NCBI GenBank assembly: GCA_964247135.1
Contig: CAXTTL010000024.1
Coordinates: 1-32,996, forward strand
Source of the DNA: an uncultured Deinococcales bacterium
GTDB taxonomy: Bacteria; Deinococcota; Deinococci; Deinococcales; JAAFIG01
DNA length: 32,996 nucleotides
Direction: 5' to 3'
Shown here: one piece after another, positions 1,251 through 6,069 of the stretch
How positions within the stretch are numbered: the stretch's first letter is position 1
Layout of the letters: every line of letters begins with the position of its first letter
Notes under the pieces: model-generated
What the model was told of the DNA's origin: nothing
Seen by the model: the letters and a program-made list of their open reading frames with translations, nothing else
The model's database searches: none
Position numbers and translations under genes: made by a program

Positions 1251-1256
1251 TAAACT
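1251..1256 (+). promoter_or_regulatory. -10 box of a probable leaderless promoter
   Basis: TAAACT followed by exactly 6 nt and then ATG 1263; no Shine-Dalgarno sequence. Confidence 0.6.
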
Positions 1257-1262
1257 ACAGCA

Positions 1263-1643
1263 ATGAAGTTTCGTCCCCGTCACTTGCGCCAACTCGAGCG
1301 TTTTATTCGCGCTCGGGTTGTGCCGTTGATGCTGGCGGTACTTGTTGCCTGGTTCGGCTCGAACGCGTTTCTGGAATCCGCTTCAATGCAAGTCATGCAC
1401 CATCATGCCTGCAATGCACTCTTGGCAAAAACCAATTCAGAACACCCGAACAGTCAAAATCAATTTCATGAACACTGCCAATTTTGTTTTGCACCTGCAC
1501 TTGCCTCTGGCGCTCCAAGCAAATTCAATCTTTCGCGTTTAACTGTTACCCAAACCTTAAAACTCGAGCCTCAACATCACCTGACTCACCATCGGGTTCA
1601 GTACAAAATTGCCGCTCCTCGAGCGCCACCAGTTCAAGTTTAA
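1263..1643 (+). CDS. DUF2946-type (CruR/CutF-like) leader protein with CxxC and C-terminal RAPP arrest motif
   Basis: N-terminal hydrophobic segment, His-rich stretch, HCQFC, terminal APRAPPVQV; directly upstream of copper genes. Confidence 0.82.
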   Translation: MKFRPRHLRQLERFIRARVVPLMLAVLVAWFGSNAFLESASMQVMHHHACNALLAKTNSEHPNSQNQFHEHCQFCFAPALASGAPSKFNLSRLTVTQTLKLEPQHHLTHHRVQYKIAAPRAPPVQV

Positions 1644-1693
1644 ACCATTTGAACTTCGGTTTTTGGCGTTCTGTCTCGAGGTTTTCTCGAGGA
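1616..1693 (+). promoter_or_regulatory. mRNA hairpin covering the RAPP codons and approaching the ycnI RBS
   Basis: AGTTCAA 1631-37 pairs with TTGAACT 1649-55; CGCCA 1624-28 with TGGCG 1664-68; TCCTCGAG 1616-23 with CTCGAGGA 1686-93. Confidence 0.6.
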
Positions 1694-1707
1694 TTTAAGG
1701 GGTTTTG

Positions 1708-2166
1708 ATGAAAAAATATTTTGTGGCATTGGCTGGTCTTTTGGCAACAACAATGGTTTCTGCGGTTTTGGCTCATGCCACCGTCAAATCCGACATGGGT
1801 TTATCGGAATCCAAGGCGGGATCGTATGAAACCTACCGACTGCAAGTCCCAACCGAAAAGCCCCTCGACACCACCGAGGTCAAATTGTTCGTGCCGCAAG
1901 GCTTAACGATCTCGACGTTTCAAGCGTTGCCTGGGTTTGATCGCAGCGTCGAAAAAAATGCGGACGGCATCATCACCACCGTCACTTGGAAGGGCAAAAT
2001 CGGTCAGCAAGAATTTCAACGGTTCTTGTTCAGTGCCAAAAACCCTGCCCAACCGACCACGCTCTTGTTTAAGGTGTACCAAACCTACAGCGATGGCAGC
2101 ATCGTGAAATGGGAAGACGAAGACCCCAAGGGTCAAACCCCAGCCTCTCGGGTCGAAATCAAGTAA
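1708..2166 (+). CDS. ycnI: YcnI/DUF1775 copper-binding exported protein
   Basis: Signal peptide ending VLA|H, then VPTE, VTWKG and VYQTYSDGSIVKW motifs; AAGGGG RBS. Confidence 0.88.
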   Translation: MKKYFVALAGLLATTMVSAVLAHATVKSDMGLSESKAGSYETYRLQVPTEKPLDTTEVKLFVPQGLTISTFQALPGFDRSVEKNADGIITTVTWKGKIGQQEFQRFLFSAKNPAQPTTLLFKVYQTYSDGSIVKWEDEDPKGQTPASRVEIK

Positions 2167-2606
2167 TGAACTCGAGATTTTTCATCGCAACCCTGGTCAG
2201 CTTTTTGCTGGCTGGGGTTGTGTTGGCGCATTCGTACCTCAGCAACAGTTCGATTTTGGCTGGTAGCATTCTGAAAATCATGCCAGACAAATTAACACTG
2301 GAGTTTTCTGAACCGCTCGAAGTTGGATTCTCGAGTTTTAAAGTCTACAAACTCGAGACGAAAAGCACGGACGGCGCGAACATAAAACTCGAGGCAGAGG
2401 CATTGGTGGCTCGGGTTTTGGCGCTCAAGAACGATCTGGCAAAACGTGCCGATGCTGGACTTGAAACCACCGCCAGCGAAGCGGCATTGGTCAAACTCAA
2501 ACTCAAAGCAAACCTTAAGTCTGGAATCTATGTGGTGATGTACCGCGTTTTAAGCGTGGACACGCACATCACCCAAGACTTTTTTACCTTCAGCATCACC
2601 AATTAA
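2166..2606 (+). CDS. copC: CopC-family copper-binding protein (paralog 1)
   Basis: ATG overlaps the ycnI stop (TAATG); signal peptide LA|HS, LEFSEP, GIYVVMYRVLSVDTH. Confidence 0.85.
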   Translation: MNSRFFIATLVSFLLAGVVLAHSYLSNSSILAGSILKIMPDKLTLEFSEPLEVGFSSFKVYKLETKSTDGANIKLEAEALVARVLALKNDLAKRADAGLETTASEAALVKLKLKANLKSGIYVVMYRVLSVDTHITQDFFTFSITN

Positions 2607-2617
2607 AAGGAGCAATC

Positions 2618-3058
2618 ATGAAAAAAACGTTCTTGTTCGTCCTCGCCGCCAGTCTCGCCCTTGTGGGTATCGCCTTCGCGCATTCCAAAGTCAAAAAATC
2701 CACACCCAAAGACGGTGAGATCATCAAAGTCATGCCCAAAGCCGTCAAGCTCGAGTTTGACGAGGGCGTGGTCAGCAGCCTGAGCACGTTTAAAGTCTAT
2801 AAACTCGAGACCAAATCCAAAGGCAGCGAGGCACTCGAGAAGGAAGCCGAAGCCTTGGCTACCAAACTGACCATGAAAAAAGACGATGCGAAGGCTCGAG
2901 CCGATTCTGGATTCAAGGGCGACGGTGACGAGACCACCAAATTTACGATCAACCTGAAATCGGGTTTGAAGCCAGGCGTTTACGTGGTGATGTGGCATTT
3001 GCTTGGTTCTGACACGCACACGGTTTCGGGCAATCTGTGGTTTCAATACAAGCCCTGA
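2618..3058 (+). CDS. copC: CopC-family copper-binding protein (paralog 2)
   Basis: AAGGAG RBS; AFA|HS, STPKDGE, LEFDE, PGVYVVMWHLLGSDTHTVSG. Confidence 0.88.
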   Translation: MKKTFLFVLAASLALVGIAFAHSKVKKSTPKDGEIIKVMPKAVKLEFDEGVVSSLSTFKVYKLETKSKGSEALEKEAEALATKLTMKKDDAKARADSGFKGDGDETTKFTINLKSGLKPGVYVVMWHLLGSDTHTVSGNLWFQYKP

Positions 3059-3101: not shown

Positions 3102-4307
3102 ATGAACAACGACTATCTGCCCTTAATGTTCCGCCTCGCGTTCTTTGTCGGGGCGGTCTGTTTGATCGGCTCGAGCACGTATCAGCGGTATCTCTCCCCT
3201 GCCCCACCCTCGAGATTGATGCGCCTGGTGCATCTGGCGGGGGCGCTGTTGCTGATCGTCGCCAGTTTGCTCGAGGTTGGCGTGACCGCGTATCGGGCAT
3301 TACTCGAGTTAAACCCATACTTGTACGGCGCGTACATGACCACCTCGAGGCACGGACGGGCGACCTTGGCTCGAGTCGCAATGGCGGCAGCGTTGTGGTG
3401 GGTGGGTTTGGTCGCGCAAAAAGAATGGTTTGAGTTTGGCAAGCTCGACGGGAAATTACTAGATCAAATCGCTCATGGTTTTCTGTGCGTCGGTGTGCTC
3501 ATCACCATCAGTTTCACCTCCCACGCGGGCGCTCGAGCCGAGGTGCTGCCGATTTTTGCCGATGTGATTCATCTGGCTGCCATGACCGCCTGGGTCAGTG
3601 CGGTTGCGTTCACGGCTTTTAACTTGCGCCCTAAAGCGCCACAAGACACTTTAAACTTGCTCGAGCGCGTCTCGAGCGTCGGGCTTGGCACGGTCATTGC
3701 CCTGACCTTGACGGGGCTTTACACGGGTTTGATTCGCCTGTGGGACCCAGAATTGCTGATCGAAACCCAATACGGGCAGGCTTTGGTGCTGAAATTGGCG
3801 GTGGTCGCCGTGATCGTGGCGCTGGCAGGGGTGAATCGTTTTGTGATGATGCCGCAGATGAAAGCCAAACCCAACAATGCCAACTTCACACGGTTTTGGG
3901 GCATTTTAAGGCTCGAGACGGCGTTGCTGGGATTTGTCATGCTCGCCTCCAGCAACCTGTCCACGATTTCGCCGCCAGAACGGGGCGTGCAACTGGCGGC
4001 AATCCAAACTTTCAGTCAACGCATTGCGCCTTGGACGTTGACGGGCACCGCCACACCAACCGTGATTGGCGGGGTCAACCTCGAGTTTGAGATCAAAGGC
4101 GACACTGGCTTTCAACTTTCGCCCGATGCCAGAATTGATGCCACGCTCGAGTCCACCAGCCACACCATGACGCCAGATGTCATGAAGGTTGAACGATCAA
4201 GTGATGGAAAATACCATGCCAGGGGTATTTTCGGCATGACGGGCGAGCATTTGGTGATTCTCAAATGGTCTGGAGCCAAAGCCGAAATCAGACTCGAGGC
4301 AAAATAG
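3102..4307 (+). CDS. copD: CopD-family copper transport membrane protein with C-terminal soluble (YtkA-like) domain
   Basis: About 8 TM segments with SHA, DVIHLAAMTAW and TQYGQALVLK motifs; C-terminal beta domain containing SHTM. Start could be 3093 (TTG) or 3102 (ATG). Confidence 0.87.
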   Translation: MNNDYLPLMFRLAFFVGAVCLIGSSTYQRYLSPAPPSRLMRLVHLAGALLLIVASLLEVGVTAYRALLELNPYLYGAYMTTSRHGRATLARVAMAAALWWVGLVAQKEWFEFGKLDGKLLDQIAHGFLCVGVLITISFTSHAGARAEVLPIFADVIHLAAMTAWVSAVAFTAFNLRPKAPQDTLNLLERVSSVGLGTVIALTLTGLYTGLIRLWDPELLIETQYGQALVLKLAVVAVIVALAGVNRFVMMPQMKAKPNNANFTRFWGILRLETALLGFVMLASSNLSTISPPERGVQLAAIQTFSQRIAPWTLTGTATPTVIGGVNLEFEIKGDTGFQLSPDARIDATLESTSHTMTPDVMKVERSSDGKYHARGIFGMTGEHLVILKWSGAKAEIRLEAK

Positions 4308-4382: not shown

Positions 4383-5195
4383 ATGAGCCGAATTCACCCA
4401 CTGTTGTTGGTTCTTCCCGCCGTCGCCACGTGCGCTGCGTTGTTGATTACACCCGTCTCGGGACAGCAAAACATCAATTTGACCGTCTTTGCCGCCTCGA
4501 GTTTGACGGATTCTTTCGCCGAAATCGGCAAGGCGTTCGATGCCAAAACGGGCGGCAAAACCAATTTTCAATTTGCAGGATCACAAGTCTTGCGCACCCA
4601 ACTCGAGAATGGCGCGAAAGCAGATGTTTACGCCAGCGCCAACAGTACGCAGTTTGACCCACTTGTAAAAGCTGGTTTGATCTCGAGCGGCATTGTTTTT
4701 ACCAAAAACCGTTTGATCGTGATTGTGCCAAAAAAGGGTGCGGCGAACGTCAAAACGCTGTCCGACCTTAGCAAACCTGGTGTCAAACTGGTGATTGCCG
4801 ACAAAACCGTTCCGGTTGGACAGTACACCCGTCAAATTCTCGAGGCGCTCGGAAAATCCAAATCTTACGGCGCGGATTACACGGCTCGAGTCCTCAAAAA
4901 CATCGTCTCGGAGGAAACAAACGTCCGTCAGGTGGCGCTTAAAGTGCAGTTGGGCGAGGCGGATGCCGGCGTGGTCTACACCACCGATGTCACCCCGACC
5001 CTCGCCCCGAGCGTGATTCAGATTGCCATTCCCGCCAGTTACAACGTGATCGCCAAATACCCGATTGGCGTTTTGAAAAGCTCGAGCAACATTGATGCCG
5101 CCAAAGCTTTCACCGATTTTGTGCTCTCGAGTGACGGGCAAAAGATTCTCGGCAAATGGGGTTTTTTGTCGGTCGGTGGCAACAAAGTACCGTAA
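4383..5195 (+). CDS. modA: Molybdate ABC transporter substrate-binding protein
   Basis: VFAASSL, FAGSQVLRTQLENGAKADVYASA, VPVGQY and GEADAGVVYTTD motifs; AAGGAG RBS before ATG 4383. Confidence 0.95.
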   Translation: MSRIHPLLLVLPAVATCAALLITPVSGQQNINLTVFAASSLTDSFAEIGKAFDAKTGGKTNFQFAGSQVLRTQLENGAKADVYASANSTQFDPLVKAGLISSGIVFTKNRLIVIVPKKGAANVKTLSDLSKPGVKLVIADKTVPVGQYTRQILEALGKSKSYGADYTARVLKNIVSEETNVRQVALKVQLGEADAGVVYTTDVTPTLAPSVIQIAIPASYNVIAKYPIGVLKSSSNIDAAKAFTDFVLSSDGQKILGKWGFLSVGGNKVP

Positions 5196-5259
5196 ATTCT
5201 GTGACCACTTTCAGACTTTGCGCTTCAAGCTCGAGCAATCAATGGCATGATAAACGGGC

Positions 5260-6069
5260 GTGAGTGCCAAGCAGCCAAAACCATCGGTCGCCAATCCCCT
5301 GCCCGTTCTGCCCATCGTGGCAAGTTTGGTGCTGATTGCATTTTTGTTGCTGCCAACCTTGGTGGTGCTCGAGCGTGGAGTGGGCGCGGGGTTTACTGGC
5401 GCGTGGCTCAACCCTGTGGTGCTCGAGGCGTTACGGGTCAGCTTGCTGACGACTGGCATCACCCTTGGCTTGACGGTGATTTTTGGAACGCCCGTCGCTT
5501 ACCTGTTGGCGCGTTATCGATTTGTCGGTCACACCCTGCTCGACACCCTGCTCGACCTGCCGATTGTGCTGCCGCCCGTGGTGGCTGGCGTGGGTCTGCT
5601 GCTGACCTTTGGGCGTCAAGGTTTGCTCGGTGCGCCGCTGGCGATGGCAGGGATTTCTTTGGCGTTCAGCCCCGCCGCCGTGGTGATGGCACAACTTTTT
5701 GCCAGCGCACCTTTTTTTATTCGGGCGGCAAAAGCCGGATTTATGGCGGTGGACCGTGACATCGAAGACGCAGCACGCATCGACGGGGCTTCCAACCTTC
5801 AAGTCTTTTGGTTTATCACCTGGAAGCTCTCGTTCGCTTTTTTGCTCGAGGGTTTGGTGCTGACCTGGGCGCGGGCTTTGGGCGAGTTTGGCGCGACCAT
5901 CTTGTTTGCAGGATCACTGATCGGCAGCACCCGCACGATCACCCTCTCGATTTACGCGGCGCTCGAGAGTGATCTCAACCCCGCGTTGGTCTTGTCGGCA
6001 GTGATGGTTTTTGTGGCTTTTGGACTGTTATTTGTGGTGCGGATGCTCACCAAAAATCGCAGCCATTGA
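5260..6069 (+). CDS. modB: Molybdate ABC transporter permease
   Basis: DLPIVLPPVVAG, EDAARIDGAS and WARALGEFGAT motifs. Confidence 0.94.
   Translation: MSAKQPKPSVANPLPVLPIVASLVLIAFLLLPTLVVLERGVGAGFTGAWLNPVVLEALRVSLLTTGITLGLTVIFGTPVAYLLARYRFVGHTLLDTLLDLPIVLPPVVAGVGLLLTFGRQGLLGAPLAMAGISLAFSPAAVVMAQLFASAPFFIRAAKAGFMAVDRDIEDAARIDGASNLQVFWFITWKLSFAFLLEGLVLTWARALGEFGATILFAGSLIGSTRTITLSIYAALESDLNPALVLSAVMVFVAFGLLFVVRMLTKNRSH

Follow-up and report, generated by a model that had tools for sequence, protein, structure and literature searches.

Known copper-responsive arrest leaders and a probable new example

The closest described counterparts of the leader analyzed here are CruR (Bp2923) of Bordetella pertussis and CutF of Rhodobacter capsulatus. 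CruR is encoded by the first gene of a copper-acquisition operon and combines an export segment and a CxxC motif with the sequence RAPP three residues from the C-terminus; the CxxC-RAPP spacing is 45, is kept within 1-2 residues, and matters for function (PMC9426467). Arrest by CruR has been toeprinted, and CruR as well as all seven tested Streptomyces uORFs ending in RAPP or RGPP arrest in vitro (PMC12992588). In the case of CutF, copper promotes the stall, inducing a detoxifying oxidase (PMC9973294; bioRxiv 10.1101/2025.02.05.636593). CruR and CutF are built alike, yet copper acts on them in opposite directions. Related elements include SLIV_16130 and SLIV_18480 of Streptomyces lividans, which, like the leader described below, are small secretory ORFs with a C-terminal RAPP located before metal-homeostasis genes, but have other Cys/His arrangements or four transmembrane segments (PMC12992588). 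The predicted arrest chemistry of our leader is the same as that of ApdA/ApdP (PMC10951233) and of the Streptomyces RAPP/RGPP uORFs, although ApdA and ApdP are described as protein-localization monitors (PMC10951233).

Several elements of the present case have been reported. CruR homologs occur in Deinococcus, a supplementary table listing one protein of D. alpinitundrae, and YcnI and CopC are named among the genes downstream of CruR homologs (PMC9426467); RAPP/RGPP uORFs are enriched before YcnI-family genes (PMC12992588), in a paper whose main text contains no occurrence of the name Deinococcus. The leader is therefore less new than it was rated earlier, and the principle of a copper-sensing arrest leader is already published. 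A literature search, which covered few subscription journals, returned no experimental study of a deinococcotal leader. What is added here is the phylum-wide reach of these leaders, a covarying fold within one genus that would mask the Shine-Dalgarno (SD) sequence, and variation of the Cys ligands.

A DUF2946-like leader heads a copper operon

The window (the whole stretch of DNA analyzed, 32,996 nucleotides from an uncultured Deinococcales bacterium) encodes a leader at the head of a copper-homeostasis operon, with a -10 box just upstream and the genes ycnI-copC-copC-copD following. The features of the locus, all on the forward strand, are:

1251..1256 (+), -10 box TAAACT (TANNNT), 6 nt before the leader ATG (conserved gap, genome-wide peak)
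1263..1643 (+), leader ORF, 126 aa, DUF2946-like (CruR/CutF-type), from translation, homologs and codon substitution pattern
1317..1373 (+), residues 19-37, a hydrophobic segment preceded by a basic N-region (mean Kyte-Doolittle 1.98; helix in the AlphaFold model)
1390..1610 (+), C-rich, G-poor leader mRNA stretch, candidate Rho utilization region (base counts)
1467..1487 (+), HEHCQFC, a His-flanked CxxC (C72, C75) with invariant residues, putative Cu(I) site
1614..1703 (+), conserved mRNA fold (31 consensus pairs, 5 same-genus genomes)
1620..1631 (+), RAPP arrest motif, R120-A-P-P123, invariant, 3 codons before the stop
1708..2166 (+), ycnI (DUF1775), predicted exported Cu(II)-binding protein with His directly after the signal peptide (PF07987, E 3e-17; B. 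subtilis YcnI 7me6, E 3e-22)
2166..2606 (+), copC-1 (PF04234, E 1.5e-13)
2618..3058 (+), copC-2 (PF04234, E 5e-17; matches to solved CopC)
3102..4307 (+), copD with a C-terminal YtkA/FixH-like domain (PF05425, E 4e-17)

A preliminary description of this locus had proposed an ORF with a transmembrane or signal segment, several His/Cys motifs and an RAPP end, positioned 64 nt before ycnI; translation and coordinates agree with this proposal, and the operon order that it gave also holds, with the DUF1775, both CopC and the CopD matches all exceeding the Pfam cut-offs. The leader ends in PRAPPVQV, and 64 nt separate its stop (ending at 1643) from the ycnI ATG at 1708. Residues 19-37 are the best 19-residue hydrophobic window of the protein, which suggests a predicted signal peptide or signal anchor. 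The CxxC and RAPP motifs are 44 residues apart. The AlphaFold model, built on a 25-sequence alignment, consists of a single N-terminal helix (residues 5-45) with low confidence elsewhere (mean pLDDT 53). Judging from ApdA/ApdP and the toeprint of CruR, a stall at RAPP is predicted to hold codon 1626-1628 in the P site. RAPP is rare in the proteome, with 2 occurrences in 2830 long ORFs against an expectation of 11.7, and LAPP is depleted too (8 versus 20.7 in the same set).

The leader is a genuine coding frame because 24 further homologs were found (52-80% identity) and because, in the reading frame, it differs from four relatives by 26-33 synonymous codon changes, compared with 3-11 in the shifted frames. 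All five same-genus genomes carry it, and a phylum-profile search recovered a single copy in the window's own genome.

The C-terminal domain of the CopD protein scores 0.95 in the Atlas comparison to FixH/YtkA clusters and shows a weak Pfam YtkA match, below the cut-off, in 4/4 orthologs. The resulting CopD-YtkA architecture is that with which B. subtilis YcnJ ends. Like the B. subtilis ycnKJI system, the operon unites YcnI with CopC, CopD and a YtkA-like domain, but here CopC is separate and duplicated (PMC8424229, PMC13344008). A heme-copper oxidase subunit I is encoded in the genome, implying cellular copper demand. Genes resembling modA-modB of ABC transporters (4383-6069) follow copD on the same strand in the window, as they do at L001, L003 and L005, and may share the copper operon transcript.

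Conservation and family membership

Alignment of 25 leader homologs showed the blocks HEHC-FCFAP and AAPRAPP to be invariant, including H69, E70, H71, C72, F74 and C75. The other two His-rich motifs named in the preliminary description are present, MHHHAC at 1395-1412 and HHLTHH at 1575-1592, but fared differently from the CxxC. Within MHHHAC, H46 and H48 alone are invariant, with the Cys missing from 5 of the 25 homologs and shifted by three residues in another five. HHLTHH is not conserved at all among these homologs, so that we rule it out as a metal site and regard it as incidental. Across 26 phylum-wide leaders, the only invariant positions are Met1, C75, R120, P122 and P123.

An HMM check of the proposed DUF2946 assignment gave a divided answer. 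DUF2946 (PF11162) is the sole Pfam family that the leader matches, over model positions 13-117 of 117, with 20.4 bits (E 9e-4) against a gathering cut-off of 23.7 bits; since it falls short, we call the leader DUF2946-like rather than a formal member, whereas CruR belongs to DUF2946/PF11162. A protein 60% identical to the leader (P0024) passes with 26.6 bits. Among 28 leaders scanned, 6 pass the PF11162 cut-off, 13 match below it and 9 have no match. NCBIfam contains no family for the leader. A six-frame PF11162 search of the genome had no match and missed the leader ORF itself, and thus is unusable for counting paralogs. An HMM search of protein representatives with a narrow alignment yielded three matches, and a metagenome scan yielded one weak, partial locus (L049) that was left out of the analysis.

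A leaderless-type promoter

The TANNNT element lies at an identical 6-nt gap before the leader ATG in 6/6 aligned leader loci. Genome-wide, this element peaks at the same gap, with 202 of 2138 long ORFs compared to 8-64 at other gaps. A TANNNT motif with 6-7 bp spacing has been described for leaderless genes (PMC12340547), and the leader mRNA is predicted, from the promoter sequence, to be leaderless, in line with what had been proposed for this ORF. A sigma-70 scan and a terminator scan revealed nothing exceeding shuffled levels, and no intrinsic terminator was found in the scan of the region between the leader and ycnI.

The gene upstream of the leader differs between relatives. In the window, the leader is preceded by a 75-aa ORF without an assigned family (989-1216, +) and a divergent LysR gene (2-916, -); at L003 and L005, a different gene of about 200 aa takes the place of the small ORF, with the leader promoter region retained.

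Leaders and copper genes across Deinococcota

A phylum search for DUF1775 matched 103/364 genomes, from which we examined the 30 best-scoring loci, chosen by YcnI score and not by the presence of a leader. To count as a leader, an ORF had to encode R[AG]PP no more than 330 nt upstream of ycnI and, 40-44 residues before it, CxxC or CC. Such an ORF lies directly upstream of ycnI in 25 of the 30 loci, and in 21/26 outside the genus. CxxC is present in 22 of these 25 leaders and CC in 3, with Cys-to-R[AG]PP spacers of 40-44. The R[AG]PP and CxxC/CC pair is absent from all 375 control 330-nt windows (0/262 reverse-strand, 0/113 downstream). The synteny survey thus extends the proposed linkage between leader and copper genes to the phylum. 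In one of the five misses (L043, in genome G072), the two motifs stand in separate frames, and that of CxxC continues into ycnI without meeting a stop, which points to a frameshift in the leader or to an error of assembly.

A profile of the 26 leaders matches 144/364 phylum genomes (143 without G324). Falling below the Pfam cut-off, most of these leaders are probably under-annotated. The genes behind leaders away from ycnI were surveyed in 42 loci hand-picked among 150 listed of 188 matches, including L059 and L074, with a profile that was itself seeded with ycnI-linked leaders. The first gene after the leader encodes MbnP in 11 loci, an unnamed exported protein in 9 (counting L099, which was assigned by eye), CopC in 8, PCuAC in 7, PepSY_TM in 4, NosD in 2 and a ferric-reductase-like protein in 1; no multicopper oxidase, ATPase or RND pump was found in first position after these 42 hand-picked leaders.

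At L001, where ycnI and one copC are lacking, the leader and its intergenic region lie immediately in front of the remaining copC; the leader is thus tied to the operon head and not to YcnI. Elsewhere, the unnamed exported protein of about 150 aa replaces YcnI between the leader and copC, as at L090 (1699-2151, -) and also at L077, L080, L087, L091, L092, L099, L106, L074 and L013. This protein has a His right behind the predicted signal peptide and no Pfam match, and its Atlas neighbors are nameless except that one cluster is 12% YtkA. On these sequence features, it is a candidate new copper-binding family.

A conserved mRNA fold that may mask the ycnI Shine-Dalgarno sequence

The consensus fold of the leader-ycnI junction, derived from five same-genus genomes, pairs 1614-1619 with the SD region at 1698-1703 and the RAPP-to-stop codons at 1621-1639 with 1647-1671, and includes a separate hairpin at 1673-1694. 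In the five genomes, 154 of 155 cells are paired (99.4%), and five pairs show a compensatory change. The covariation score was reached by 0/500 shuffles, with the caveat that the genomes are five close relatives whose alignment also served to derive the structure. One of the compensatory changes is in the SD helix: three genomes have C-G at the variable pair, the window's genome has U-G and L001 has U-A, so that L001 keeps the SD pairing through U-A replacing C-G.

The effect of a stalled ribosome was modeled with its P site on the first Pro of RAPP. The modeled unmasking of the SD is 1.6-4.6 kcal/mol in four relatives, versus about 0.4-0.6 kcal/mol, and at most 1.5 when a longer context is modeled, for the sequence of the window, where the SD-opening cost worsens from 3.2 to 5.0 once upstream mRNA may re-pair. 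In a position scan of the four relatives, the opening cost drops mainly at P-site codons -6 to +2 around the Arg. We consider it rather more probable than its opposite that SD masking contributes to the switch within the genus. As a rule for all leaders of the phylum, masking is unsupported: unmasking of at least 1 kcal/mol was obtained for 22/60 other leaders versus 10/34 controls (Fisher p 0.51), and at 2 kcal/mol for 16/60 versus 3/34 (p 0.06).

The hairpin at 1673-1694 is a small one formed by CTCGAG. This sequence occurs in 33,925 copies in the whole genome (G000), 6.7 per kb, far beyond the expectation from base composition.

A C-rich, G-poor leader mRNA

The stretch 1390-1610 contains 66 C and 30 G in the window and 55-63 C and 36-41 G in five relatives. 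The C excess is thus present in 6/6 leader loci and is strongest in the window's genome. Over the last 180 nt of the leader, the C/G ratio is 2.24, a value reached by 23 of 18324 coding windows. The skew arises mostly from amino-acid content, given that 8% of synonymous recodings attain the ratio, whereas the depletion of G exceeds the synonymous expectation (0.4% of recodings). The genome encodes Rho, which may matter more than SD masking in the window's genome.

Other copper regulators

The preliminary description had noted that no copper repressor gene is adjacent, and that B. subtilis controls the corresponding genes with the repressor YcnK. The lack of an adjacent repressor is borne out. 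A CsoR-family gene is on another contig, beside copZ- and copA-like genes, with two CCCC..GGGG palindromes between them. A box of this shape, which follows the csoR locus of the genome and CsoR operators in general, was not seen in the window between 900 and 1720 in a local check, including the leader promoter; genome-wide, matches to the CsoR-box pattern are as numerous as in the control. A YcnK-type NosL domain was not found in the genome, which is 84% complete, by a search that detects NosL in B. subtilis; control here is predicted to be translational, unlike the repressor control of ycnKJI. For CueR, ten MerR-family matches were obtained, none above the cut-off and none on the leader's contig. 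The divergent LysR gene, one small ORF upstream of the leader, may be a regulator of the operon.

How the switch would work

The leader bears the hallmarks of copper-sensing stalling peptides and so is most likely another example of the described switch. Those predictions of the preliminary description that sequence analysis could check all held, which supports its interpretation. That it is an arrest leader acting in cis is very likely, and that copper is the signal is likely; that copper turns the operon off appears fairly likely. Taken together, we consider it reasonably probable that this is a cis-acting, copper-responsive arrest leader of CruR type in front of an uptake operon. Arrest, copper binding, cis action and the direction of the response are carried over from CruR by analogy; the leader's anatomy, conservation, synteny and conserved fold are observed.

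In this scheme, a leaderless-type promoter would feed an exported, mostly unstructured CxxC/RAPP peptide at the head of the operon. When copper is scarce, the ribosome translating the leader would stall at RAPP, cover about 1614-1643 and melt the junction fold, including its pairing with the ycnI SD. The stalled ribosome would also shield the C-rich mRNA from Rho, so that the uptake genes would be expressed. Copper binding to the nascent CxxC would free the stall, whereupon the fold would re-form and/or Rho would terminate transcription, turning the operon down.

The comparison with CruR is close. Besides the position in a copper operon, the export segment, CxxC and RAPP three residues from the C-terminus, the two leaders share the spacer (44 here, 45 in CruR), a dispensable or variable third Cys, a stretch of C excess in the 3' half and predicted poor folding. 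They differ in the host, which here belongs to Deinococcota; in the 5' end (a 45-nt 5' UTR in CruR versus a leaderless-type promoter); in the targets (a TonB receptor and PepSY_TM versus YcnI/CopC/CopD); and in the pairing of RAPP-proximal codons with the next SD, which is found in the leader here. The intergenic region is 162 nt in CruR and 64 nt here; this short gap is closer to the CutF-type range and counts against the CruR reading.

Direction of the response and alternative explanations

The preliminary description had assigned to this leader the same mechanism as in CruR and CutF. Given that these two act in opposite directions, one of them has to be chosen, and the CruR direction is favored. 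The first genes behind the 42 hand-picked leaders belong to acquisition or assembly families, with no oxidase, ATPase or RND pump, and a CsoR of their own serves the export genes at another locus, together with CsoR-like boxes that the leader promoter lacks. A copper-off direction is also supported by B. subtilis YcnJ, which sustains growth under copper starvation (PMC13344008).

The reverse polarity, as in CutF, would have copper bound during export prolong the stall, open the SD and switch the operon on, with CopC and YcnI serving as periplasmic copper buffers. The short 64-nt gap and the SD-masking fold fit the CutF/SecM architecture (PMC9973294), the hydrophobic export segment of the leader is conserved, and EF-P is encoded in the genome. 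CutF resembles our leader further in being exported, in the distance of about 45 residues that separates its Cys motif from a Pro-rich end, and in the predicted SD-masking fold of the next gene that a stalled ribosome would melt. Its Cys motif is CxxxC (PMC9973294), however, compared with CxxC and an exact RAPP here, both of CruR type, and it precedes a copper-induced detoxifying gene instead of YcnI/CopC/CopD; the combination of CxxC and exact RAPP before uptake-type genes predicts the direction opposite to that of CutF. The 42 hand-picked loci are likewise headed by acquisition and cuproprotein-assembly families, with no detoxifying oxidase or exporter first, and export is served by the separate csoR-copZ-copA locus. 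We therefore regard the CutF polarity as unlikely.

We also consider it improbable that the stall is real but answers to something other than copper, such as secretion, periplasmic thiol-disulfide state, another metal, or a constitutive coupling to the first exported gene. The earliest descriptions of RAPP peptides cast them as Sec/YidC monitors (PMC10951233), every first downstream product appears to be exported or membrane-bound, other metals have been suggested for some CutF-like proteins (PMC9973294), and some leaders have lost the first Cys (3/25 have CC; L085, L086 and L114 have a single Cys). At least one Cys is nevertheless retained at a fixed distance of 40-45 residues; 32 of the 42 first genes are copper-linked or PepSY_TM, and 9 more encode the unnamed protein ahead of copC. 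The response of CruR, moreover, is copper-specific and CxxC-dependent (PMC9426467). A conventional exported His/Cys protein that chaperones or buffers copper in trans, with RAPP incidental, would account for the several His clusters, the export segment and the location within a copper operon, but is highly improbable considering that no folded domain is predicted (mean pLDDT 53 on the 25-sequence alignment), that the His clusters are poorly conserved and RAPP/RGPP with its spacer is the conserved part, that the leader is always first in its cluster where examined, and that CruR fails to complement in trans.

With CruR and CutF responding oppositely to copper on a shared design, the CruR-type leaders favored here form a compact test case outside Proteobacteria for the direction of the switch. 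The assets of this clade include a short, moderately AU-rich intergenic region and a covarying fold. Natural variation adds SD helices with a single base-pair difference, a deletion of ycnI, and leaders whose ligands are CxxC, CC or one Cys.

Leader variants and a wider picture

A more far-reaching picture, which we offer tentatively and regard as somewhat doubtful, is that in much of Deinococcota copper acquisition might be controlled mainly by leaderless CxxC/RAPP arrest peptides and not by a YcnK-type repressor. Within the genus, the switch would then be a hybrid in which the CruR direction is read through a CutF/SecM-like SD-masking fold made of the arrest codons, with relatives trading SD masking against Rho, and a Deinococcus sub-clade with Cys-Cys-Met-Pro-Pro and RGPP would be one that Pfam DUF2946 misses.

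Leaders with vicinal cysteines form a sub-clade, with CxCC in L019, L020, L022 and L027 and CC only in L024, L039, L042 and L107. Most have CCMPP, exactly 40 residues before RGPP or RAPP, and they are located upstream of ycnI or mbnP. None of the seven scanned matches DUF2946, two weakly match DUF6153, and several are N-terminally truncated by start choice. Judging from the motif, this sub-clade possibly has a different metal site. In three further leaders (L085, L086 and L114), the first Cys is replaced (EHGPLC) upstream of PepSY_TM-PCuAC operons, and L104 and L111 have RGPP leaders with a spacer of 44-45 before nosD-like genes.
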